Origin: Polyangiales bacterium
Lineage (GTDB): Bacteria > Myxococcota_A > Polyangia > Polyangiales > Ga0077539
Length of the DNA: 64,000 nt
Direction of reading: 5' to 3'
Assembly: GCA_044229975.1 (NCBI GenBank)
Contig: JBGARZ010000002.1
Location: 576,001 to 640,000, forward strand
Shown: positions 1 to 12,121 of the stretch, piece after piece
Numbering within the stretch: position 1 is the first letter of the stretch
Layout: the number at the start of each line of letters is the position of its first letter
Position numbers and translations under genes: made by a program
The notes under the pieces: model-generated
Seen by the model: only the letters and a program-made list of their open reading frames with translations
Databases searched by the model: none
What the model was told of the DNA's origin: nothing

Positions 1-1641
1 GAAATTCTCCAGCGGCATCGGCTGACCGTCGATGAGCACCGTGGGCAGGAGCACGTCGGCCATGTGCAGCTCTGCGACGTCGCTCGGCGGCTGGAAACCC
101 ACGAGCGACCCACGGAGGAACTTCACTCCCCGGTAGATCAGATAGTCGCGCCAGGGGTCGAACCACGCGACGGAGGTCGGGCCGTTGAGCGTCGCGTCGG
201 TGATGGTGCGCCCGGCGAGCTGGTCGATGAGGAGCTGCGTCACGCAGTTGCCCTGGGTGCGCGTCTCGCTCTCGCTCGCGGTCATCGCGCCGAGCACCTC
301 GGGGCCGAGCTCCATGTGCCTCCGGCACGTCTTGGTGAAGCGCTCGCCCTCGATGAAGTCCCACCAGGTGAGGTCTTCGAACTCCGCCGCCCGCCGCTCG
401 GTCGACGAGGTCATGTACTGGAAGAGCTTGGTGCTGATGCGGGAGACGTCCTGCGCGCTGTACCCGAGCTCGCGCACGAAGCTCTCCAGCAGCTTCAGCG
501 TCTGCTGGATCGACCGCGGCGGCCGACGCGGGAAGCTCACGAGCCGCTGCCGGGTGGCCTTGCCGTCGCCGCTCGCCGCGATGGGCTCGGGCGCATCGTC
601 GTCGTCGTCCTCGCGCGGCTCGTCCTCGCCCTCGTCGCGACCGCTCGGGGCAGCCTTCGGCGCCGGGGCGGCCTCCTTGTCGTCGCCGTCCTTGTCGGTC
701 GACACCGCAAGCCACGTGGCCTCGGTCGACACCAGGTTGTCGAACACGGTTCGCACCGCCGGGCCGAAGCGATCGACGCCGGGCTGGAGAATCGGCGTAC
801 GGCGCATCGTATCGAAGAGGTGTCGATAGAAGCCCGGGAAGTATCGGAAGCCGTGCTCACCCGGCACGACGCCCCGACCCTTCACTCGCACCTCGACGCG
901 GAAGGTCTCCAGCGTCTCGACCCAGAGGATGTCTTCCTCCCGTGTTGCGTCGGCCCACCTGGCGTAGGCGTCCTCGGCTGCGTCCTTCCCACGCAGTTGG
1001 CGCTCCTCACCGATGGCAACGTTGAGCCGTCGCTTGATCTCATCGCGCACGTCCTCCGCGTCCTTGCGGATGCTCGCAGCGGCGCCCGCGGTATCGGCAA
1101 GGTCCGAGTGCTTCATCGGCCCTAGGAGCACAACCGACAGCGCCTGATAGCCGGCACCCCGCGTCGCTTCGCCCACGCGCCGGACAAAGCCCGTGAGCTC
1201 GGCGACGATCGGCTCCCACAACTGCGGGACGGCTTCCGTCGAGGTGGGGCTCACCTTCGCGATCTCTTCGACCGTGAACTCGAACGACGGGTGGCGCACG
1301 AATGGCAGCGCCCGCGCGATGCGCCCCTCGTCCTCCGGTGGCGTGGGCTTCGGCTTGCCCGCCTGCTTCGCCTCCTCCGCCGCCCGCGCCTCGCCCGCCT
1401 TCCGCGCGTCGGCCCTCTCCCGCGCCTCCCGCTCGGTCTCGCCGGTCGGGATGTACGCCCACTGCGTGCGCGCCAATCCCCCCACCGCAGGCAGGTCGTC
1501 GTCCCAGGAGTCCTCCGCGGGCTCGACCAGGTACACCTCGTACCCGCGCTCGATGCACTCGTGCGCGACCGACAAGCCAGTGATGCCGCCGCCGAAGACC
1601 CAGACCACCGAGGTCGAGTTCCGTCTCGTCTCTTCGCTCAT
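1..1641 (-). CDS. FAD/NAD(P)-dependent oxidoreductase, HpnE/phytoene-desaturase-like (amine oxidase superfamily); partial, runs off the left edge
   Basis: Not in the ORF track because there is no stop in the window. Hand translation from ATG 1641 gives MSEETRRNSTSVVWVFGGGITGLSVAHECIERGYEVYLVE (Rossmann GxGxxG), then GGLART, PGEHGFRYFPGFYRHLFDTMRRTP and LNGPTSVAWFDPW. The frame is open to base 1. Start overlaps the upstream stop (ATGA). Confidence 0.85.
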   Translation of the reverse strand, partial: MSEETRRNSTSVVWVFGGGITGLSVAHECIERGYEVYLVEPAEDSWDDDLPAVGGLARTQWAYIPTGETEREARERADARKAGEARAAEEAKQAGKPKPTPPEDEGRIARALPFVRHPSFEFTVEEIAKVSPTSTEAVPQLWEPIVAELTGFVRRVGEATRGAGYQALSVVLLGPMKHSDLADTAGAAASIRKDAEDVRDEIKRRLNVAIGEERQLRGKDAAEDAYARWADATREEDILWVETLETFRVEVRVKGRGVVPGEHGFRYFPGFYRHLFDTMRRTPILQPGVDRFGPAVRTVFDNLVSTEATWLAVSTDKDGDDKEAAPAPKAAPSGRDEGEDEPREDDDDDAPEPIAASGDGKATRQRLVSFPRRPPRSIQQTLKLLESFVRELGYSAQDVSRISTKLFQYMTSSTERRAAEFEDLTWWDFIEGERFTKTCRRHMELGPEVLGAMTASESETRTQGNCVTQLLIDQLAGRTITDATLNGPTSVAWFDPWRDYLIYRGVKFLRGSLVGFQPPSDVAELHMADVLLPTVLIDGQPMPLENF

Positions 1642-2078
1642 CGCCCCGCTGCCTCCCTTTCCGCGCTCGTAGATACAACGTCCCCGCGAAACGCGTCCAT
1701 CATCCAAGGAAACGAAGGGCTCCGAACCGCCCCGCGCAGAAACTCCAGCAGCCCGTCGTGGAAGGCCGCGAGGTCGGCCACGCGCCCGCGCAGCACCGTC
1801 TGCCCGAGCACCACGGACGTGACGAGCGAGCGCTCGGCATCGACCAACGCGACGATCTCGCGCCGCGTCGTGGTCAGCGTCACCGCGGGTGCGACGGGCT
1901 CGTCTCGCAGCCACACCCGCGCGCCGTCGCTCTGCACCGCGGTCACCTCGCCGTCGACGGTGATGGTCACCTCGCGCACCCCGAGCGCCGCCGCCATGCG
2001 CGCGTGCGCCCACGGCAGTTCTGCCAGGAGCGTGCGCAGTCCACGGTCGACCCACTCCCGAAACGGCGCCCTCGTCAT
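1638..2078 (-). CDS. SCP2 sterol/lipid-binding domain protein
   Basis: 146 aa. AVTLTTTRREIVALVDAERSLVTSVVLGQTVLRGRVADL matches the SCP2 pattern. Sits in an operon. Confidence 0.65.
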   Translation of the reverse strand: MTRAPFREWVDRGLRTLLAELPWAHARMAAALGVREVTITVDGEVTAVQSDGARVWLRDEPVAPAVTLTTTRREIVALVDAERSLVTSVVLGQTVLRGRVADLAAFHDGLLEFLRGAVRSPSFPWMMDAFRGDVVSTSAEREAAGR

Positions 2079-2086
2079 CGCCCCGC

Positions 2087-3133
2087 CTACGCCCCCAGGA
2101 ACTCGAAGATCGCCCGGCCCCGCATCGCCACGTGCTCGCCCCGCACGCGCCCCTGCACGGTGACATCGCCGCTCACCTCGTGGATGACCGTCACGCCCGG
2201 GTCGTGGTCGTTGGGGATCACCACGGCCGCGACGTCCTCGGCGTCGAAGCGGAAGGTCACCTCATCGCCGTCTCCGCGCGCGGTCACCACCAGCGACTTC
2301 GGAACGTCGGTGACCGTCCCTGGCGTCACGAGCGCCATCGCCCGCGGCAGCTTGAAGACCCTCGACGCGCGCAGAAACCCGACGCGCTCCACGGTCACGT
2401 CCGCCGCCCGCATCACGCGATGCTGGAAGAGCCCGCGCCAGAGGAAGAGCGCCTGCATGTACGCCCGCGTATGGGCGCGATCGCTCAGCCGCACGAACAC
2501 CATGCTCCACGGGTTGTCCTCGCACGCCTCGGGCAGTCCGTAGCCCCACTCCCACGCGAAGTCCCTGCCCCACGCGAAGTGCCCCCAGTTGTGGTCGTGG
2601 TAGGCCCGCGCCCGGTCGATGCGCGTGACCCTCTCCCCGATGCGCACCTCGCCGCTCGCCACCATGCGCGGCAGCACCATCCAGTTGATGGGCGGCCCCG
2701 GGTCGAGGACGATGTTGTGCGCGAGCGAGGGCACACACCCCGGCTCCAGCCGCAGCGAGATGGCGATGGGGCGGTGGCGCAGCTTCACCTCGATGACGTA
2801 GCGGTCGTCCTCGAAGGCCACGCGGTTGCCGCCGAAGCCCATGTGCAGTCCACCGCCCGCGACCTCCACCTCCGCGGGCTCGAACAGCTCCACGTCGCCG
2901 TCCCACGTGTGGTCGCGCACGAGCACCACCACCCGCGCAAACTCCTGGCCTCCCGGCGCTCCGTCGCGCACGTCGTCGACGAGGCTGAAGTTGACCAGCA
3001 CGTCGAGGCCCGGGGCATACACGCAGAAGTGCCACCACTCCTTGTGACCCGAGGCGCCGCCTTGCGCGAAGGGCGAGCGACGCAGCCAGTCGGCGTCGGC
3101 GACCGCCTTCGACAGCAGCTTCAACGCAGCCAC
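2087..3133 (-). CDS. CrtC/AttH/tocopherol-cyclase-like beta-barrel enzyme (putative hydratase/cyclase)
   Basis: 348 aa. Contains KEWWHF, AYHDHNWG and FAWEWG motifs typical of the CrtC/tocopherol cyclase/AttH fold. Confidence 0.7.
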   Translation of the reverse strand: MAALKLLSKAVADADWLRRSPFAQGGASGHKEWWHFCVYAPGLDVLVNFSLVDDVRDGAPGGQEFARVVVLVRDHTWDGDVELFEPAEVEVAGGGLHMGFGGNRVAFEDDRYVIEVKLRHRPIAISLRLEPGCVPSLAHNIVLDPGPPINWMVLPRMVASGEVRIGERVTRIDRARAYHDHNWGHFAWGRDFAWEWGYGLPEACEDNPWSMVFVRLSDRAHTRAYMQALFLWRGLFQHRVMRAADVTVERVGFLRASRVFKLPRAMALVTPGTVTDVPKSLVVTARGDGDEVTFRFDAEDVAAVVIPNDHDPGVTVIHEVSGDVTVQGRVRGEHVAMRGRAIFEFLGA

Positions 3134-3438
3134 TCGGAGGTGCGGGCCCGCGACGTGACCGGCCCCGCCGGAGTGTCGGTGCGGGGGCGAGCGATGGCCT
3201 CCCCGAGGATTCGGCGCAGCGTGGCGCGCAACGAGGCGAGGCCCAGGACGAAGGCGATGAGCTCGGCGTCGCGCGGGCCGGGTTCGCTCGTCGATGGCGT
3301 CGCGTCGCGCGGGGCGAAGGCGTCGACGAGCGCGTCGAAGCGACGACCGTAGGACTCCAGACCCAGCAGGAGATGGAGCCAGGCGTTGCGGGTCACGAAC
3401 TCGTCGCCGTGGTGCTGGGTCTCGGTCGCGCGGTTCAC
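3121..3438 (-). CDS. small helical hypothetical protein
   Basis: 3' part of track ORF 3121..3591. GTG at 3438 overlaps the upstream stop (GTGA) and the stop overlaps the next gene. Confidence 0.6.
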   Translation of the reverse strand: MNRATETQHHGDEFVTRNAWLHLLLGLESYGRRFDALVDAFAPRDATPSTSEPGPRDAELIAFVLGLASLRATLRRILGEAIARPRTDTPAGPVTSRARTSEWLR

Positions 3439-3821
3439 GTCGCGTCGTCGTCGGGGTGGAGGCGGAAGAGGCGGGTCAGCATCGGTTCGAGGTCGGGCAC
3501 CGTGGCCGCCTTCGCGAGGGCGTCCATCAGCCTCGACGGGAGCGCCGTGGTGGGCTTCTCTTCCAGCACGTTGAGCGTGCCGACCTCCCACACGACACGC
3601 CCGCGCCGGATGAGCTCGGAGCCCGCGAGGCGGTCGCGGAGCGCGGCTCCGTCGGGCGTCTCCGCGAAGGCGCGACCCTCGGAGACCATCGCGGCGAAGA
3701 GGGCCTGCGCCGAGACCGGGTACCGCAGGATGAGCTGCTGGGCCTGACGCAACGCCGCGAAGAGGCCGTCCTCCTCGTGCACCTCGAACTCGATCACCTC
3801 GTCGGGGTCGGACGCAGACAC
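3435..3821 (-). CDS. hypothetical protein (128 aa)
   Basis: Normal globular composition, in a co-directional operon with a 4-nt gap on one side and a 4-nt overlap on the other. Confidence 0.7.
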   Translation of the reverse strand: MSASDPDEVIEFEVHEEDGLFAALRQAQQLILRYPVSAQALFAAMVSEGRAFAETPDGAALRDRLAGSELIRRGRVVWEVGTLNVLEEKPTTALPSRLMDALAKAATVPDLEPMLTRLFRLHPDDDAT

Positions 3822-3825
3822 CGGG

Positions 3826-4629
3826 TCAGCCGTCGAGGTCGAAGCGCAGCGCGACGCGGATCACCTTGCCGACCTCGCCGTTGCGCGTGGGCAGGCGATA
3901 CTCCCCCGTCGCCTCGGCCTGCGGATTCATGAGGGCGAGGGTCTCGGGCTTCCACGAGATGCGAAGCCGCAGCGGCAGCACTCCGCCTGGCGGGACCTTC
4001 ACCGGCTCGCGCAGCACCTCGACCCGCAGGAGGTCCTTGTCCACGCCGGGGCTCCCCGACCAGTCCATCTTGATGGTCTCGATCGCGAAGCGCTGCGTCG
4101 GCTCGGTCTCGCTCGGGGGTGGCAGCTCGGGCTTCGGCCATGCCTCGCGGGTGAGGTTCTTCGCGCGAAACTGCCGGATGACCTCGCAGCGGTCGGTGAG
4201 CGGCTTGTCCTCCGGGCGCTCCTTCCGGTCGGCCTCGACGGCCTTCACCGGAATGGTGAGCGACAGCACCTCGCCGCGGTTGCCCCGCACCGGAAACCCG
4301 AGGAGGTCACCGACGCGCTCCTCCAGGCGACCCATGTGGCGGCCGCGCATGTCGATGAGCGAGTCGAGGGTTCGCACCTGGAGGCGCGCGATGTCGAAGA
4401 AGAGGTCGCCCGCGCGTCGGAGGTCATCGAGCTTGGGGAGCAGTGACGTGACCCGGAGCTTGCGCTCGGACGACCCGCTGCCCGGCACCTCGTCGAGCGC
4501 ATCGGCCGCGCGCCGCACCGCCTCCTTCCCGTCGTGGATTCCCTTGAGGATATCCACCGCGGTCACGATGGACCGGCTCTTCACGGCGTTGAGAAACTCC
4601 GCCTGGGGATTGAGGTTCGTCGCGCTCAC
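3826..4629 (-). CDS. hypothetical protein, first gene of the operon (helical N-half, beta-rich C-half)
   Basis: 3' part of track ORF 3826..5424. GTG at 4629 follows a purine-rich AGGGAAGGGA. The upstream extension is antisense shadow of the S8 gene. Confidence 0.7.
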   Translation of the reverse strand: MSATNLNPQAEFLNAVKSRSIVTAVDILKGIHDGKEAVRRAADALDEVPGSGSSERKLRVTSLLPKLDDLRRAGDLFFDIARLQVRTLDSLIDMRGRHMGRLEERVGDLLGFPVRGNRGEVLSLTIPVKAVEADRKERPEDKPLTDRCEVIRQFRAKNLTREAWPKPELPPPSETEPTQRFAIETIKMDWSGSPGVDKDLLRVEVLREPVKVPPGGVLPLRLRISWKPETLALMNPQAEATGEYRLPTRNGEVGKVIRVALRFDLDG

Positions 4630-4728
4630 TGGTGGTCCCTTCCCTGGAGAGCCTGGAGATGTATCCCAGCGCACCGTGGCTGAGAAGCCCCGCGCGCACG
4701 ACCCTGGGAGTGTGGTACGCGACCCGCC

Positions 4729-7700
4729 ATGCGTGTGCCCAGACCAGGCTTGTTCGTCGTCACGGCCGCACTGGCCGCCACCCTCTTCACCCCGTCGGCG
4801 CGGGCCGTGTGGCCCCCGACGGCCGACATGACCGCGGACGACCTCTCGCGCCCCGAGAACTGGCCCAACGATCCGGGCTACGCCTACAACAGCCGCGGGG
4901 ATGGCCAGTGGCAGTGGTGGAGCTGGGTGCCGCAGGTCACCCGCATGGTCGCCAACTTCCGCGTCCAGGAGATCGCGATGGGCGCGGGCAACAACGTCGA
5001 CCGCGCGTGGGGCATCTCCATCGGCGACCCGCGGGTGCTCATCGCGGTGCTCGACTCGGGCATCAACTGGGACAGCGACGACCTCGTCAACAAGGTCGCC
5101 CTCAACACCGCCGAGCTCCCGATGCCGATGGGCGCCACCAGCCATGACGCCAACGGCGACGGCGTGGTCAGCCCGGCCGACTACCTCAACGACACGCGCA
5201 TCACCTGTGGCGTCGCGGGCATGCCCCGCAACCAGTTCTCGTGCCGCGGCTCCGACGGGATGCCCAACGACCCCAACGCCAACGGCATCCTCGATGGCGG
5301 CGACCTCATCCGGGTGTTTTCCGACAGCACCGATGCGGACAACAACGGCTACGTCGACGACATCGCCGGCTGGGACTTCATGCATGACGACAACGACCCG
5401 GCGGACGACACCCGCTTCGGTCACGGCACCGGCGAGGCCCGCGACTCCACCGCCGAGGGCAACAACATGCGCGGCGGCATCGGCGCCTGTCCGCGCTGCC
5501 GCTTCATTCCGACCCGGGTCGGCGACAGCTTCATCACGGACGTCCAGGACTTCGGCCAGGCCGTCGTGTACGCCGTCGACCGCGGCGCCAGCGTGGTGCA
5601 GGAGGCCCTCGGCACGCTCAACAACTCCCGCTTCTCACAGGCCGCCGTCGACTACGCGTACCGCAACAACGTGGTCGTGATGGCCAGCGCGGCGGACGAG
5701 AACTCGCGCCACCACAACATGCCGGGCACGCAGAACCACACCGTCTACGTGCACGCGGTGACCTTCGACTCGGCCAACATCAACGCCGCGACGACCTTCA
5801 TCAACTTCAACAACTGCACCAACTACGGCGCGCAGCTGGTGCTGTCGGTGGGCGGCGAGGGCTGCTCGTCGGCCGCCACGGGCTACTCGTCCGGCATGGC
5901 CGGGCTCATCTACTCCGCGGCGCTGGAGCGCAACCTCACCCCGGCCCTCTCGGCCGAAGAGGTCAAGCAGCTGCTCATCACCACCGCGGACGACATCAAC
6001 GTCCCGGAGAGCCAGCCCACGCACCCGATGTGGGACCGCACCAAGTACCCCACGGGCCCCGGCTGGGACCAGCGCTCGGGCTACGGCCGCACCAACGCCC
6101 GCCGGGCGCTGGAGCGCGTGCGCGCCGGACAGATTCCTCCCGAGGTCGACATCGTGTCGCCGCGGTGGTTCACGGTGTTCGACCCCGACCGCGCGCCGCA
6201 GCAGACGCTGCGCATCGAGGGCCGCATCGCCGCCCGCCGCGCGCCGCGCTTCGACTACACCATCGAGTACGCCACCGGGATCGAGCCCGCCGACACCGCC
6301 TGGGTCATGGTGCGCCGCGAGACCAACGTCACCGCCGCCGTCACCAACACCCTCGGTGAGATCGACCTCCGCACGCTCACCATCAACAACCCCGGTGAGA
6401 TCGAGAACCGCTACACCCTCACCGTCCGCATCCGCGTGACGGCCCACTACGACTCGCCCATCGGCGACGTGACGGGCGAGACGCGACGGGCGTTCTATGT
6501 GCACCGCGACCCGACGGTGCTCCCGGGCTTCCCCATCGACCTCGCGTCGGGCGGCGAGAGCTCTCCGCACCTCGTCGACCTCAACGGCGACGGCTCGCGC
6601 GAGATCATCTTCGCCACCGCCGACGGCGACGTGCACGCCTTCGGCGGCAACGGCGTCGACATCGCCGGCTGGCCCGCCCACACCGGCCGCGTGCAGGGCT
6701 ACGACCCCGCGCGCATGCCCAACTACCTCGGCGCGCGCGCGTTCCAGCCGGTCGCCGGCGGCCCGGCGCCGCTCGATGCGTCGCTCATCCGCGAGTCCAT
6801 CCTCGCCACGCCCGCCATCGCCGACCTCGACGGCGACATGCGCCCCGAGGTCATCGTCGGTACCTACGCCGGGACCATCCACGTCTTCCGCGCGGACGGC
6901 ACCGCCTACGGCCACGGCTTCCCGTACACCCTGCCCGACGTGCCGAGCTCGGCCACCTCGCCGGAGCGCATCCAGGCGCGCGGCATGTTCGGCGACCCGG
7001 TGATCGCCGACCTCAACAACGACATGCGCCCGGAGATCATCTTCGGCGCCTTCGACGGCAAGGTCTATGCGCTCGACGCGATGACCGGCGCCGTGCGCCC
7101 GGGCTTCCCGGTGGTGATCCACTTCCCCGAGGAGGGAACCAACTTCAACCGCGTCTTCGGCAGCGTCGGCATCGGCGACATGGACGGCGACGACCGCCCC
7201 GACATCGTCTCGGTGTCGAGCGAGGGCCTCCGCGGCGACAACAACCAGGGCGCGGTCTACGTCATCTACGGCGACGGCAACCTGCACGCGGGCGGACCCT
7301 TCCACCCCAACTGGCCGATCCCGTACCTGTCGTTCAACTTCTTCCCGCTCATTGGTGAGGGTGTCTCTTCGTCGCCCGCCATCGCCGACCTCGACAACGA
7401 CGGTCGTGATGAGCTCGCGCTCGTCGGCACCGGCAACGGCGTCATCACCCTCGCCCGCGGCGTCCAGCCTCCGCACGTCGCCCGCCCGGCGCCGCAGACC
7501 CTCGCGCAGGGCGTCTCGATCCGCAGCGCGATGCGCGGCCGCCTCACCAACGTCAACGGGTCGCTCGTGTCGTTCATCCCGGCGTTCTCGCTCGGAACCT
7601 TCGGCGACATGACCAACGACGGCGTGCCCGACTTCATCATCACGGGTGCGAGCCTCAACCTCGCGATCAACCTCGCGGGCGGCGGTCGCGCCTTCCCCAT

Positions 7701-8385
7701 CGACCACCTCGCCGGTGGCTTCGATGGCACCACGGGCAACGCCCTCCCCGGCTTCCCGCGGCTCCTCGAGGACTACACGTTCTTCTACAATCCCTCGATG
7801 GCGGACGTCGGCGGCGACGCCTACCCCGAGGCGCTCATCGGCACCGGCGGCTACTACCTCCACGGCTTCGACGGCTGCGGCCGCGAGCCCGACGCGTGGC
7901 CGAAGTTCACCGGCCAGTGGATCATCGCCAACCCCGCCGTCGGCAACATCCGTGCTGAAGGCCGAAACGACGTCGTCGCGGGCACACGCTCGGGCTTCCT
8001 CTGGGCGTGGAGCACCACGACGCAGGCCGCCACCGCCAGCGTGCAGTGGCCCTCGCACCGCCACGACCCGGCCAACACCGGCAACTGGGGCACCGCGCTC
8101 AACCAGGGCGTGCGCCGCGTTCCGGGGCTCGGTCCCCTCGACTGCCCGCTGCCCCCGATCGAAGACGCCGGGACTCCCACCGAAGACGTGGGCACCGTCG
8201 TCGCCGACGCGGGCACGGTCACCACCGACGCCGGGACGCCCGCCGCCGACGCTGCGACCACCACCCCGCCGACCATCGAAGGGGACGGCTGCGGATGCCG
8301 CACCAGCCCCACGGGCACGCCCCGCGCGGGCCTGATCGCCCTCGGTCTCGCGATGCTCGCCGTGCGCCGTCGCCGCCGCGGCTGA
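4729..8385 (+). CDS. S8 subtilisin-family serine peptidase with FG-GAP/VCBS repeats and MYXO-CTERM tail (paralog 1)
   Basis: Signal peptide; catalytic triad motifs IAVLDSG, GHGT and GCSSAATG; many DLDGDG-type repeats; C-terminal GCGCRT, hydrophobic helix and RRRRR. Confidence 0.9.
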   Translation: MRVPRPGLFVVTAALAATLFTPSARAVWPPTADMTADDLSRPENWPNDPGYAYNSRGDGQWQWWSWVPQVTRMVANFRVQEIAMGAGNNVDRAWGISIGDPRVLIAVLDSGINWDSDDLVNKVALNTAELPMPMGATSHDANGDGVVSPADYLNDTRITCGVAGMPRNQFSCRGSDGMPNDPNANGILDGGDLIRVFSDSTDADNNGYVDDIAGWDFMHDDNDPADDTRFGHGTGEARDSTAEGNNMRGGIGACPRCRFIPTRVGDSFITDVQDFGQAVVYAVDRGASVVQEALGTLNNSRFSQAAVDYAYRNNVVVMASAADENSRHHNMPGTQNHTVYVHAVTFDSANINAATTFINFNNCTNYGAQLVLSVGGEGCSSAATGYSSGMAGLIYSAALERNLTPALSAEEVKQLLITTADDINVPESQPTHPMWDRTKYPTGPGWDQRSGYGRTNARRALERVRAGQIPPEVDIVSPRWFTVFDPDRAPQQTLRIEGRIAARRAPRFDYTIEYATGIEPADTAWVMVRRETNVTAAVTNTLGEIDLRTLTINNPGEIENRYTLTVRIRVTAHYDSPIGDVTGETRRAFYVHRDPTVLPGFPIDLASGGESSPHLVDLNGDGSREIIFATADGDVHAFGGNGVDIAGWPAHTGRVQGYDPARMPNYLGARAFQPVAGGPAPLDASLIRESILATPAIADLDGDMRPEVIVGTYAGTIHVFRADGTAYGHGFPYTLPDVPSSATSPERIQARGMFGDPVIADLNNDMRPEIIFGAFDGKVYALDAMTGAVRPGFPVVIHFPEEGTNFNRVFGSVGIGDMDGDDRPDIVSVSSEGLRGDNNQGAVYVIYGDGNLHAGGPFHPNWPIPYLSFNFFPLIGEGVSSSPAIADLDNDGRDELALVGTGNGVITLARGVQPPHVARPAPQTLAQGVSIRSAMRGRLTNVNGSLVSFIPAFSLGTFGDMTNDGVPDFIITGASLNLAINLAGGGRAFPIDHLAGGFDGTTGNALPGFPRLLEDYTFFYNPSMADVGGDAYPEALIGTGGYYLHGFDGCGREPDAWPKFTGQWIIANPAVGNIRAEGRNDVVAGTRSGFLWAWSTTTQAATASVQWPSHRHDPANTGNWGTALNQGVRRVPGLGPLDCPLPPIEDAGTPTEDVGTVVADAGTVTTDAGTPAADAATTTPPTIEGDGCGCRTSPTGTPRAGLIALGLAMLAVRRRRRG

Positions 8386-8464: not shown

Positions 8465-11400
8465 ATGCGCCCCTATCGCCGTTGGTTGTCTCGTGGGCTG
8501 GGCCTCGCGCTCGGCCTCGGGACCTTGCTCGCCACGCAACGAAACGCGGAGGCCGTCTGGCCGCCGCGCCCGGAGATGACCGCCGCCGACCTGTCGATGA
8601 TGGCCAACTGGCCCAACGACCCCGGCTACGCGGGGCAGTGGGAGCACTGGTCGTGGGTGCCTGGAGCGAACCTCACCTTCCCGAACTTCCGCACCGCGGA
8701 GGCGACGATGGGGACGGGCAACAACACCGACCGCGCGTGGGCCATCTCGGTGGGAGATCCGCGGGTGCTCATCGCGGTGCTCGACTCGGGCATCAACTGG
8801 GACAACGACGACATCGTCAACAAGATCGCCCTCAACACCGCCGAGCTCCCGATGCCCGAAGGGGCGACGAGCTACGACAGCAACGCCGACGGCGTGGTGA
8901 ACATCCTCGACTACCTCCGCGACTCGCGCGTGACCTGCGGGACGGGCGCCGTCGCGATGCGCAACCCGCGTCAGTGCCGCGGCACCGACGGGATGCCCAA
9001 CGACCCCAACGCCAACGGCGTGCTCGACCCGGGCGACCTCATCCGGGTGTTCTCCGACCGCACCGACGCGGACAACAACGGCTACGTCGACGACATCGCG
9101 GGCTGGGACTTCTTCCAGGACGACAACGACCCGGCCGACGCCACGCGCTTCGGCCACGGCACCGGCGAGATGCGCTGGAGCGCCGCGGAGACCAACAACG
9201 GCATCGGCGACGCCGGCGACTGTCCGCGCTGCATGCTCGTCCCCATCCGCGCGGCCGACAGCTTCATCGGCGAGGTCGACGACTTCGCGCAGGGCGTCGT
9301 GTACGCCGTCGACCGCGGCGCGCGCGTGGTGCAGGAGGCGCTCGGCACGCTCGACAACAGCACCTTCGCGCGCCGCGCCATCGACTACGCGTACGCCCAC
9401 AACGTGCCCGTCATCGCGAGCGCGGCGGACGAGAACTCCCGGCACCACAACGTGCCCAGCACCAACAACCACACGCTGGTGGTGCACGCCATTCGCTACG
9501 ACGGAGAAAACGTCCAGCGCAGCACGACCTTCCTCAACTTCAACAACTGCACCAACTACGGCGCGCAGCTGATGCTGTCGGTGTCGGGCACCGGATGCTC
9601 GTCCGAGGCGACGGGCCACACCGCGGGCCACGCCGGGCTGCTGCACTCGTACGCGTTGGAGCACAGCCTCACGCCCGCGCTCTCGGCCGAGGAGATCTAC
9701 CAGCTCCTGCGCACGACCACCGACGACATCAACGTGCCGGAGAGCCAACCCACGCACCCGATGTACGACAACAGCAAGTACCCGTCGCTGCCGGGGTGGG
9801 ACCAGCGCTTCGGCTACGGTCGTACCAACGCGCGGCGCGCGATGGAGTCGCTGCGCGACGGGAAGATCCCCCCCGAGGTCGACATCGTCTCGCCGCAGTG
9901 GTTCACCAACTTCGACCCCGACCGCGCGCCCCAGCAGACGCTGCGCATCGAGGGCCGCATCGCCGCCCGCCGCGCGCCGCGCTTCGACTACACCGTCGAG
10001 TACGCAACCGGCGTCGAGCCCGCTGACACCGCCTGGGTGATGGTGCGCCGCGAGACCAACGTCACCGCCGCCGTCACCAACACCCTCGGCGAGATCGACC
10101 TCCGCACGCTCACCATCAACAACCCCGGCGAGCGGTCCGATCGGTACACGCTCTCGGTGCGCATCCGCGCCGTGGCCCACTACGACTCGCCCATCGGTGA
10201 CGTACTGGGCGAGACGCGGCGTGCGTTCTTCGTGCACCGCGACAACACCGTGGTGCCGGGCTTCCCGATCGACGTGGGCGGCTCGGGCGAGAGCTCGGCC
10301 AAGGTGGTCGACCTCAACGGCGACGGCTCGCGCGAGATCATCTACGGGACGGCCGACGGCGAGCTGCACGCCATCCGCGGCGACGGCACCGAGCTCGCGG
10401 GCTTCCCGGCGCACACGGTGCCGCTCTACGGCATGAACAGCGCGCACGCGACCAACTACCTCGCCAGCGCGGCGTACTCGGGCACCACGCCCGCCATCGA
10501 CCCGGCGACGATCTACGACCCCATCGTGGCCACGCCCGCGGTCGCCGACCTCGACGGCGACGGCACCGTCGAGATCGTGGTGTCGACCTATCACGGCACC
10601 GTTCACGTCTTCAATCACGACGGCACGGCGTACGGCCACGGGTTTCCCTACGCGCTGCCCGACGTGACGAGCGCGATGACGGCGCCGGACCGCATCCTCC
10701 AGCGCGGTCTCTTCTCGTCGCCGGTGCTCGCCGACCTCGACAACGATAGCCGCCTCGACATCGTGTTCGGCGCGATGGACGGGCACGTCTACGCGCTCAA
10801 CGGGATGACCGCCGCGGTGAAGCCGGGCTTCCCGGTGGAGATCCACTTCCCCGAGGCGAACACCGAGTACAACCGCATCTTCGGCAACGTCGGCATCGGC
10901 AACTTCAACGGCGACAACATCCCGGACATCGTCGCGGTCTCCAGCGAGAAGCTGCGCGGCGACAACAACACCGGTGCCATCTACATCGTGCACGGCGACG
11001 GCAACCTGCACGCGGGCGGACCGTTCCACCCCAACTGGCCCATCGCGATGACGTCGTTCAACTTCTTCCCGCTGGTGGGAGAGGGCATCTCCGGCGCGCC
11101 GCCCATCGCGGACATCGACGGCGACGGCCGCGACGAGCTGGTGCTCACCGGCAACGCGCTCCCGACCATCGCCTTCGCGCGCGGGGTGCAGGCGCCCCAC
11201 GAGCGGCGCCCGGCGCTCAACACCCTCGCGGTGCAGGCCCTCGCGCAGACCTCGCGCCGCGGCCCGCTCACCAACAACACCACGCAGATCGTGTCCTTCG
11301 CCAACGTGTTCAGCATGGGCGCGTGGGGCGACATGGACGGCGACCAGAGCCCCGACTACGTGATCTCCGGCGCCGAGCTCAACCTCGCCATCAACCTCGG

Positions 11401-12121
11401 CGGCGGCGGTCGGGCGCGCCCCTTCTTCCACCTCGTGGGCGCCTTCCGCGGCCGCGACGGAACCGTCCTCCCCGGCTTCCCGCAGCTCATCGAGGACTAC
11501 ACGTTCTTCATGAACCCCGCGATCGCGTCGGTGAACGGCGACCCGTACCCCGAGCTCATCCTCGGCACGGGCGGCTACTACCTCGAAGCCTTCGACGCCT
11601 GCGGCCGCGTGCCGAGCGGTTGGCCGAAGTTCACCGGCGGCTGGATGATCCCCTCGCCCGCCCTCGGCGACCTCAACGGCGACCACACCGTGGAGGTCGT
11701 GAGCGGCACGCGCTCGGGTCAGCTCTGGGCCTGGCGCACCGAGGCCGACGACCGCACCGCCAACGTGCAGTGGGAGAGCTTCCGCCACGACAACCGCAAC
11801 ACCGGCAACTACGGCTCGCCGCTGTCCCTCGGCGTGCGCGGCGTCGGCGACGCCGGCGTGGTGCAGTGCCCGATCCCGGTGACGCCGGACGCGGGCACCG
11901 AGGAGGAAGACGCCGGCGTGGTGGCGCAGGACGTCGCCGTGGTGGCGACCGACGCGGGTACGACGACCGCCGACGCGGGCAGCGCGCCGACCCCGGCGAC
12001 CTCGGGCGGCGGCTGCGGCTGCCGTACGACGGGCACGGCCCCGACCGGTCGTGGTCTGACCGCGCTCCTCGGGCTCGGCCTTGTCGCCGCGCTCCGTCGC
12101 CGCCGTCGCCGCGCGGACTGA
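8465..12121 (+). CDS. S8 subtilisin-family serine peptidase with FG-GAP/VCBS repeats and MYXO-CTERM tail (paralog 2)
   Basis: Same architecture and length (1218 aa) as paralog 1: IAVLDSG, GHGT, GCSSEATG and a GCGCRT...RRRRRR tail. Confidence 0.9.
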   Translation: MRPYRRWLSRGLGLALGLGTLLATQRNAEAVWPPRPEMTAADLSMMANWPNDPGYAGQWEHWSWVPGANLTFPNFRTAEATMGTGNNTDRAWAISVGDPRVLIAVLDSGINWDNDDIVNKIALNTAELPMPEGATSYDSNADGVVNILDYLRDSRVTCGTGAVAMRNPRQCRGTDGMPNDPNANGVLDPGDLIRVFSDRTDADNNGYVDDIAGWDFFQDDNDPADATRFGHGTGEMRWSAAETNNGIGDAGDCPRCMLVPIRAADSFIGEVDDFAQGVVYAVDRGARVVQEALGTLDNSTFARRAIDYAYAHNVPVIASAADENSRHHNVPSTNNHTLVVHAIRYDGENVQRSTTFLNFNNCTNYGAQLMLSVSGTGCSSEATGHTAGHAGLLHSYALEHSLTPALSAEEIYQLLRTTTDDINVPESQPTHPMYDNSKYPSLPGWDQRFGYGRTNARRAMESLRDGKIPPEVDIVSPQWFTNFDPDRAPQQTLRIEGRIAARRAPRFDYTVEYATGVEPADTAWVMVRRETNVTAAVTNTLGEIDLRTLTINNPGERSDRYTLSVRIRAVAHYDSPIGDVLGETRRAFFVHRDNTVVPGFPIDVGGSGESSAKVVDLNGDGSREIIYGTADGELHAIRGDGTELAGFPAHTVPLYGMNSAHATNYLASAAYSGTTPAIDPATIYDPIVATPAVADLDGDGTVEIVVSTYHGTVHVFNHDGTAYGHGFPYALPDVTSAMTAPDRILQRGLFSSPVLADLDNDSRLDIVFGAMDGHVYALNGMTAAVKPGFPVEIHFPEANTEYNRIFGNVGIGNFNGDNIPDIVAVSSEKLRGDNNTGAIYIVHGDGNLHAGGPFHPNWPIAMTSFNFFPLVGEGISGAPPIADIDGDGRDELVLTGNALPTIAFARGVQAPHERRPALNTLAVQALAQTSRRGPLTNNTTQIVSFANVFSMGAWGDMDGDQSPDYVISGAELNLAINLGGGGRARPFFHLVGAFRGRDGTVLPGFPQLIEDYTFFMNPAIASVNGDPYPELILGTGGYYLEAFDACGRVPSGWPKFTGGWMIPSPALGDLNGDHTVEVVSGTRSGQLWAWRTEADDRTANVQWESFRHDNRNTGNYGSPLSLGVRGVGDAGVVQCPIPVTPDAGTEEEDAGVVAQDVAVVATDAGTTTADAGSAPTPATSGGGCGCRTTGTAPTGRGLTALLGLGLVAALRRRRRRAD

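Follow-up and report, generated by a model that had tools for sequence, protein, structure and literature searches.

The question raised by the left end of the 64,000-nucleotide (nt) stretch of a Polyangiales genome analysed here (the window, G000:C38:576001-640000, where G000 is this genome and C denotes a contig) is what is made by a compact minus-strand operon that combines small proteins with a protein of the AttH/CrtC fold, an SCP2-like lipid carrier and a flavoprotein. The comparisons described below suggest, with a probability of roughly 0.6, that these genes specify a dedicated terpenoid-lipid pathway and that an adjacent STAND-type signalling protein controls this pathway or senses its result. 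They belong to a cassette that is widespread in bacteria and apparently undescribed, and the window contains most of it.

Six co-directional open reading frames (ORFs; G1 to G6, Table 1), with a guanine plus cytosine content at third codon positions of 0.86–0.94, are joined by a 4-nt gap (G1/G2), a 4-nt overlap (G2/G3), a 13-nt overlap (G3/G4), an 8-nt gap (G4/G5) and another 4-nt overlap (G5/G6). On re-reading of the ORFs, all these junctions are exactly those given in a preliminary description of the window made from the sequence alone, which also had the operon running off the left edge. It does so: G6 continues past the edge and is followed, with a 23-nt overlap, by G7, so that the operon consists of seven genes, two of which reach or lie past the edge, and the run ends at a convergent Ser/Thr kinase-AAA_16 gene. 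The arrangement is not due to chance because the order G2-G3-G4-SCP2 is found again in unrelated phyla. No paralogs of G1-G7 were found in G000, and a scan of window positions 4550-4850 for promoters and terminators found none.

A search of the genome collection with a G4 profile gave at least 602 matching stretches, 314 of which were confirmed, and the best 80 were kept; 15 further loci were taken from relatives, and 93 loci were scored once three duplicates and the locus of the window itself had been removed. A G2-like gene lies close to G4 in 72 of the 93 loci, and G3 is present in all but one of these 72. Among the G2-bearing loci with enough sequence, SCP2 is present in 68/68, a prenyltransferase (adjacent and upstream) in 56/60, the flavoprotein in 51/65, a G1-like gene in 23/60 and a possible shell gene in 18/60, as counted with partner profiles built largely from the same loci; a methyltransferase is found in 8/72. 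In four more loci, the prenyltransferase, G4 and SCP2 occur together, but G2 was not detected. The core of the cassette is thus the prenyltransferase, two small helical proteins, the AttH/CrtC-fold protein, SCP2 and, usually, a flavoprotein. The carriers include Myxococcota, Mycobacteriaceae, Pseudomonadota, Chloroflexota, Acidobacteriota and Gemmatimonadota, and the named G4 homologs are labelled mostly Myxococcaceae, Polyangiaceae or Sorangium. In a fresher check on 301 genomes sampled evenly from the phylum, nine are carriers, one of them with three copies; eight loci were fetched from this sample, two of which are duplicates, and five of the six others show the order prenyltransferase-G2-G3-G4-SCP2-flavoprotein, the sixth being a rearranged three-gene form. 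Hence both the scored loci and the phylum sample bear out the co-occurrence of these genes in other genomes. The flanking genes differ among the loci and, therefore, the cassette moves as a unit.

The preliminary description had placed a polyprenyl synthetase just past the left edge. Such an enzyme is indeed part of the system, but its location was wrongly predicted: no prenyl synthetase was found left of the window edge past G6 and G7, the gene usually lies upstream, and in this genome it is encoded on contig C2. This copy is 66–68% identical to operon-adjacent copies of sister genera and nests among operon-linked copies (quick tree; Shimodaira-Hasegawa-like approximate likelihood ratio support of 98); in this genus, the prenyltransferase gene has moved off the operon to another contig. 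An orthologous prenyltransferase is present in each of the 16 G4-bearing genomes among 61 related ones, and within the genus, where the ortholog is unlinked, five of nine genomes have both genes and four have neither. The tree distances of the prenyltransferase and G4 are correlated across 52 loci (Spearman 0.88; 0.66 without actinobacteria), more strongly than those of the flavoprotein (0.37–0.40); shared ancestry alone can produce such correlations. The enzyme belongs to PF00348, is nearest to the Thermus and Pyrococcus geranylgeranyl diphosphate (GGPP) synthases, and retains intact DDxxD and DDxxN motifs along with the basic substrate-binding residues, as in GGPP synthases. In this enzyme class, a bulky residue five positions before the first Asp motif caps the product at C20. 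This position is Ala here, compared to Trp in 1WMW and Tyr in 1WY0, and therefore, by this rule, chains beyond C20 would be allowed; the Phe at the fourth position before the motif may still cap the chain. Directly upstream of the relocated gene, in all five carrier genomes of the genus, lies a HAD-family hydrolase gene, the product of which could dephosphorylate a prenyl diphosphate.

The CrtC/AttH-like label given earlier to G4 holds at the level of the fold. A G4 model with a predicted local distance difference test score of 95 matches AttH in Foldseek at E 2e-12, and CghA, Phm7, Fsa2, kievitone hydratase and 25-phosphosteroid lyase at 1e-8 or better. The Z scores against AttH, kievitone hydratase, the fungal Diels-Alderases and the lyase are 24–28, compared to 9 for the next fold, from alignments of 272–295 residues at 10–15% identity. 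The double beta-barrel is thus common to G4 and AttH NE1406, kievitone hydratase, CghA, Fsa2, Phm7 and 25-phosphosteroid lyase, from which the G4 family differs in being separate and tied to a prenyltransferase. It corresponds to an Atlas cluster of 1154 hypothetical proteins, and G4 has no match to PF07143, the CrtC family, or to any NCBIfam family. Invariant across 100 homologs are K31, E32, W33, H35, R67, W151, Y178, H179, D180 and H181, and W183 is likewise invariant; given that loci L033-L112 were retrieved with the YHDHNWG motif as the search pattern, its constancy there is by construction. CrtC requires His239, Trp241, Tyr266 and Asp268 (PMC4717167), and W151, Y178 and D180 of G4 are spaced similarly to the last three of these, judging by motif spacing. 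The 25-phosphosteroid lyase eliminates phosphate from the sterol side chain (PMC8449060) and, by analogy with this enzyme of the same fold, the additional His, Lys and Arg residues of G4 could bind phosphate. G4 is likely an enzyme acting on a prenyl chain; should it process a prenyl diphosphate, it would represent a new terpene-synthase scaffold.

The SCP2 label of G5 was confirmed at the family level. G5 of the window alone has no Pfam match, and 12 of 35 family members match PF02036 (best E 3.4e-5), the family profile matches solved SCP2 proteins (E 0.005), and one member is labelled SCP-2 family in UniRef. The HpnE-like label of G6 fits only loosely: HpnE is the best-E NCBIfam family for the flavoprotein members (2.7e-13; 25/37 match at E 0.001), but G6 itself scores 14.7 bits against TIGR03467 and a compact member 37 bits, for a cut-off of 283. 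In Pfam and NCBIfam, G6 shows a Rossmann motif alone. For a compact relative of 720 amino acids (aa) that shares 35% identity with G6, the top structural match of the model is rice phytoene desaturase (5MOG; E 2.8e-15, template modelling score 0.71 on the target), so that the G6 family is modelled as phytoene-desaturase-like and is predicted to act on a polyprenyl chain. The family has 1359 representatives at E 1e-30 in a 50% representative protein library; SCP2 is fused to the N-terminus in six of 149 representatives and a G4-like domain in one of 149. Across 117 measurable relatives, an insert ranges from 14 to 471 aa, and that of G6 (199 aa) matches no other representative. An OmpA-like domain, identified with an iterated profile, is present in 24 of the 117 inserts and was not detected in G6; in P0207, P0219, P0230 and P0251, it is inserted in the region that binds flavin adenine dinucleotide (FAD).

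Most of the loci with a flavoprotein also adjoin a STAND-type signalling gene. This count uses the 42 of 57 flavoprotein-type loci that span 17 kb or more: an AAA_16 gene with a kinase or a GAF-cyclase is found in 39 of these, within 1.5 kb in 33 and within 5 kb in all, and given that the loci are related, the 39 are not independent events. The neighbor is present in 23/25 non-actinobacterial and 16/17 actinobacterial flavoprotein-type loci, compared to 0/12 cassettes of equal length that lack the flavoprotein, and to a background in which 1.7% of random 20-kb stretches of G000 hold such an AAA_16 gene. In Myxococcota, the STAND gene mostly has a convergent orientation, and in mycobacteria it is upstream and co-directional; in 18 of the 25 non-actinobacterial loci, the kinase is placed and oriented as it is here. 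The cassette is likely coupled to the neighboring STAND-type ATPase, and this link of flavoprotein-type cassettes, absent from the preliminary description, is a new observation. Because the STAND gene is almost always adjoining, the cassette lipid may be a signal, and the near-fixed link gives many orphan signalling ATPases a possible small-molecule ligand or output. Both kinase-AAA-GAF-cyclase genes of G000 adjoin lipoxygenases, one beside two lipoxygenases (G000:C32:481267-490058, L131) and the other beside a lipoxygenase and a weakly catalase-like gene (G000:C19:443449-452705, L132); these are possibly oxylipin signalling loci, and the pairing with lipid-modifying enzymes is thus not unique to the cassette. 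The two arrangements are alike in that a lipid-modifying cassette adjoins a STAND-type transducer, and differ in chemistry, which is of fatty acids, not isoprenoids, in the lipoxygenase loci, where the functional link is putative too.

The four small proteins G1, G2, G3 and G7 have no assignment in Pfam, NCBIfam, PADLOC, the PDB sequences or the Atlas. Homologs of G1 were found in the same family. The N-terminal half of G1 aligns in hhalign (Probab 94) with a helix plus beta-rich accessory family encoded at the same position of other loci, and an amphipathic stretch has a hydrophobic moment of 0.67; G1 is likely a non-enzymatic accessory. Near-invariant residues are G49, T55, G58, S68, W78 and P95 in G2, and L65, G66, L104 and R105 in G3, the homologs of which end in xLR in 46 of 54 cases. 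From sequence comparison, G2 and G3 appear to be fused in Ruegeria/Solirubrobacter-type proteins. This fusion characterizes a subtype (L083, L084, L089-L092, L097) in which a methyltransferase dependent on S-adenosylmethionine replaces the flavoprotein, no STAND neighbor is present, and there are several helix plus beta-rich accessory genes, one of them Cys/His-rich.

The terpenoid reading is supported by the prenyltransferase that is adjacent in most loci and present in every G4-bearing genome of the related set, by the folds of G4 and the flavoprotein, both of which belong to enzymes whose substrates are prenyl or polyene chains, and by the SCP2-flavoprotein and G4-like-flavoprotein fusions together with cassette neighbors, namely IspH in two loci and NUDIX proteins read as isopentenyl diphosphate isomerase in two. 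Several observations speak against it. In 17 of the 93 loci, from methanogens and Gemmatimonadota, a distant G4 relative has no cassette partners, and three genomes have a related prenyltransferase and no G4 match (one a fragmented assembly, two with a sister subfamily). The position of CrtC His239 is, by motif spacing, Ile in G4 and Ile, Leu, Met or Val in the family, and the fold does not fix function, given that the AttH fold also holds Diels-Alderases. For the compact G6 relative, amine oxidases follow close behind phytoene desaturase (E 5e-12). The neighboring kinases form no clean clade, with two unlinked G000 paralogs nested within them in a poorly resolved tree, and the STAND type of actinobacteria is a different one; this suggests that the pairing arose repeatedly and is not a single frozen linkage. 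Finally, all the counts come from related loci and are not independent events.

Taking gene content, conservation, co-occurrence, folds, fusions and linkage as observed, and reading every chemical step from fold and context, we propose the following scheme. The GGPP synthase-like prenyltransferase would make a polyprenyl diphosphate with a chain of C20 or somewhat more. G4 would use acid-base chemistry at Tyr178, Asp180 and the His cluster to turn this product into a neutral terpenoid, either through loss of the diphosphate, comparable to the phosphate loss catalyzed by the phosphosteroid lyase, which has this fold too, or through hydration or cyclization at a double bond. SCP2 could then pass the hydrophobic intermediate to the flavoprotein for desaturation or reductive dehydroxylation, with a methyltransferase taking the place of the flavoprotein in other subtypes. 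G1-G3 would be non-catalytic holders or scaffolds, the preliminary description having likewise suggested scaffold or lipid-body roles for them, and the adjacent kinase-AAA or AAA-GAF-cyclase protein would control the pathway or sense its product. A bolder version, which we offer only tentatively, is a complete terpenoid signalling circuit, in which G4 is a new class of terpene synthase, the flavoprotein carries out maturation and the STAND kinase or adenylate cyclase is the receptor, with a new encapsulin-like shell in actinobacteria; if so, a synthase-receptor pair is spread across myxobacteria and environmental mycobacteria. Given that there are cultured, easily handled strains among the carriers, such as the environmental strain Mycolicibacterium chlorophenolicum DSM 43826 (KMO78133-KMO78138 region), these predictions can be tested directly.

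The same genes could be read as a storage body or compartment for a polyprenoid lipid, with G1-G3 coating the granule as phasins do, an encapsulin-like shell in actinobacteria and the STAND protein acting only as a timer. The amphipathic stretch of G1, the Ala that by the above rule would allow longer chains, and the ~260-aa gene upstream of the prenyltransferase in the 18 loci with a possible shell gene, all actinobacterial, fit this model. The products of this gene show weak matches to shell and phage-head proteins (Linocin_M18 at E 0.005 in one of 17 members, T. maritima encapsulin at E 1.2, and phage major head families) and might be an encapsulin-like HK97-fold family in mycobacteria (L054-L077, e.g., L075:7353-8138). 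Nevertheless, storage appears unlikely: every shell match is below the cut-off, a search of G000 for the PF04454 shell family gave no match, G1-like genes are detected in just 23 of the 60 loci, and both the patchy spread and the hypervariable insert of the flavoprotein fit it poorly. This patchy multi-copy spread, along with the variable flanks, the hypervariable insert and the STAND architecture, would fit a role of the cassette and the STAND gene in conflict, for instance with phages, where lipid remodelling would be set off by the STAND sensor. However, neither G1-G7 nor the prenyltransferase matches PADLOC, the PADLOC matches of the kinase and cyclase genes span generic domains only, and no defence-island genes were recognized on inspection of the recurrent neighbors, which makes this interpretation rather improbable.

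With respect to the direction of the chemistry, catabolic 25-phosphosteroid lyase and kievitone hydratase share the G4 fold (PMC8449060), so that the cassette could instead serve to break down or recycle isoprenoids, such as those of prey; G4 would then be a hydratase or lyase, and the flavoprotein would act as an oxidase. Considering that the most constant partner is a chain-building prenyltransferase, and that no coenzyme A ligase or beta-oxidation gene was recognized among the recurrent neighbor clusters (by inspection only), we regard breakdown as highly improbable. A quite different role of the prenyltransferase would be prenylation of G3 at a C-terminal Trp, resulting in a peptide pheromone. 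ComQ prenylates ComX at a conserved Trp near the precursor C-terminus, and G3 of the window ends in Trp-Leu-Arg, in line with the conserved xLR of the family. However, the Trp at position -3 is found in only 22 of 54 homologs, for which reason ComX-like prenylation was rejected, and the prenyltransferase has retained all the motifs typical of chain-elongating enzymes; this proposal is hardly credible.

The terpenoid-lipid cassette resembles a short crt or hpn pathway, yet belongs to neither. Like HpnCDE, it has isoprenoid genes next to an FAD protein from the phytoene-desaturase-like group, but G6 is much longer than HpnE, has a variable insert and scores far below the cut-off. The likeness to crt clusters lies in a GGPP synthase-like enzyme, a CrtC-fold protein and a desaturase-fold flavoprotein (compare CrtE, CrtC and CrtP/CrtI), as well as in the Trp...Tyr-x-Asp spacing of G4 discussed above. 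Among the seven operon genes, Pfam and NCBIfam searches found neither an HpnC/HpnD-type squalene/phytoene synthase nor the phytoene synthase CrtB, the neighbors in related loci having been inspected by cluster only. With no phytoene or squalene synthase, an HpnE score below the cut-off and no CrtC profile match, a standard crt or hpn cluster was rejected; to our knowledge, SCP2, G1-G3 and the STAND link are not features of crt clusters. The proposal in the preliminary description of a dedicated pathway for a modified terpenoid or lipid outside these clusters therefore stands insofar as the folds and the prenyltransferase partner define an isoprenoid cassette, the chemistry being predicted. Standard mining would miss it, as it contains neither a class I/II terpene cyclase nor a phytoene synthase.

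Family 2 encapsulin operons carry a polyprenyl transferase or terpene cyclase as cargo (PMC8346489). The actinobacterial subtype is similar in having a prenyltransferase beside a possible HK97-type shell gene, and differs in that the candidate shell shows weak Family 1 and phage-head matches and is limited to actinobacteria, being absent from this genome; the main text of that paper does not contain the words SCP2 or sterol. In the databases, the mycobacterial and Sorangium members are hypothetical proteins, except for the prenyltransferase and SCP2, and a literature search, which covered mostly titles and the starts of abstracts, found no description of the cassette.

Table 1. Genes of the cassette and its surroundings in G000. 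Positions are those of the window unless a contig is given; C38 and C2 positions lie outside the window.
Feature	Length (aa)	Position	Strand	Assignment
G1	267	3826..4629	-	Variable accessory gene; helical N-terminal part and beta-rich C-terminal part
G2	128	3435..3821	-	Core gene; conserved small protein with helical sequence pattern
G3	105	3121..3438	-	Two hydrophobic LLGL-type segments, variable linker, conserved C-terminal xLR
G4	348	2087..3133	-	AttH/CrtC-fold double beta-barrel
G5	146	1638..2078	-	SCP2-like lipid carrier (family level)
G6	1017	1..1641 (5' part), onward to C38:574588	-	FAD-binding protein with hypervariable insert
G7	190	C38:574038-574610	-	Seventh operon gene
Ser/Thr kinase-AAA_16	1217	C38:570398-574051	+	Convergent to G7
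Prenyltransferase		C2:75742-76920	-	PF00348; on a contig other than that of the operon
HAD-family hydrolase		C2:76917-77561		Upstream of prenyltransferase
Paralog 1	1218	4729-8385	+	Subtilase and FG-GAP domains
Paralog 2	1218	8465-12121	+	Tandem paralog of the preceding gene

Several related loci have compositions of their own. A sister cassette (L120, L121 and L122, from G032, G030 and G020, respectively) combines a related prenyltransferase with a flavoprotein of a different kind, a small gene and a large unassigned protein with a weak jacalin-like match at its end, without G4; an AAA gene is present in two of the three. The distant G4 relatives in L094-L112 come from Methanosarcinales and Gemmatimonadota, in the latter beside ABC-transporter-like genes, and occur without the cassette. 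Caspase-family peptidase genes adjoin three cassettes (L046, L048 and L081).

On its right flank, the operon of the window is divergent from two tandem subtilase/FG-GAP genes (Table 1). The hydrophobic, basic C-terminal tail of both paralogs resembles a myxobacterial sorting signal.

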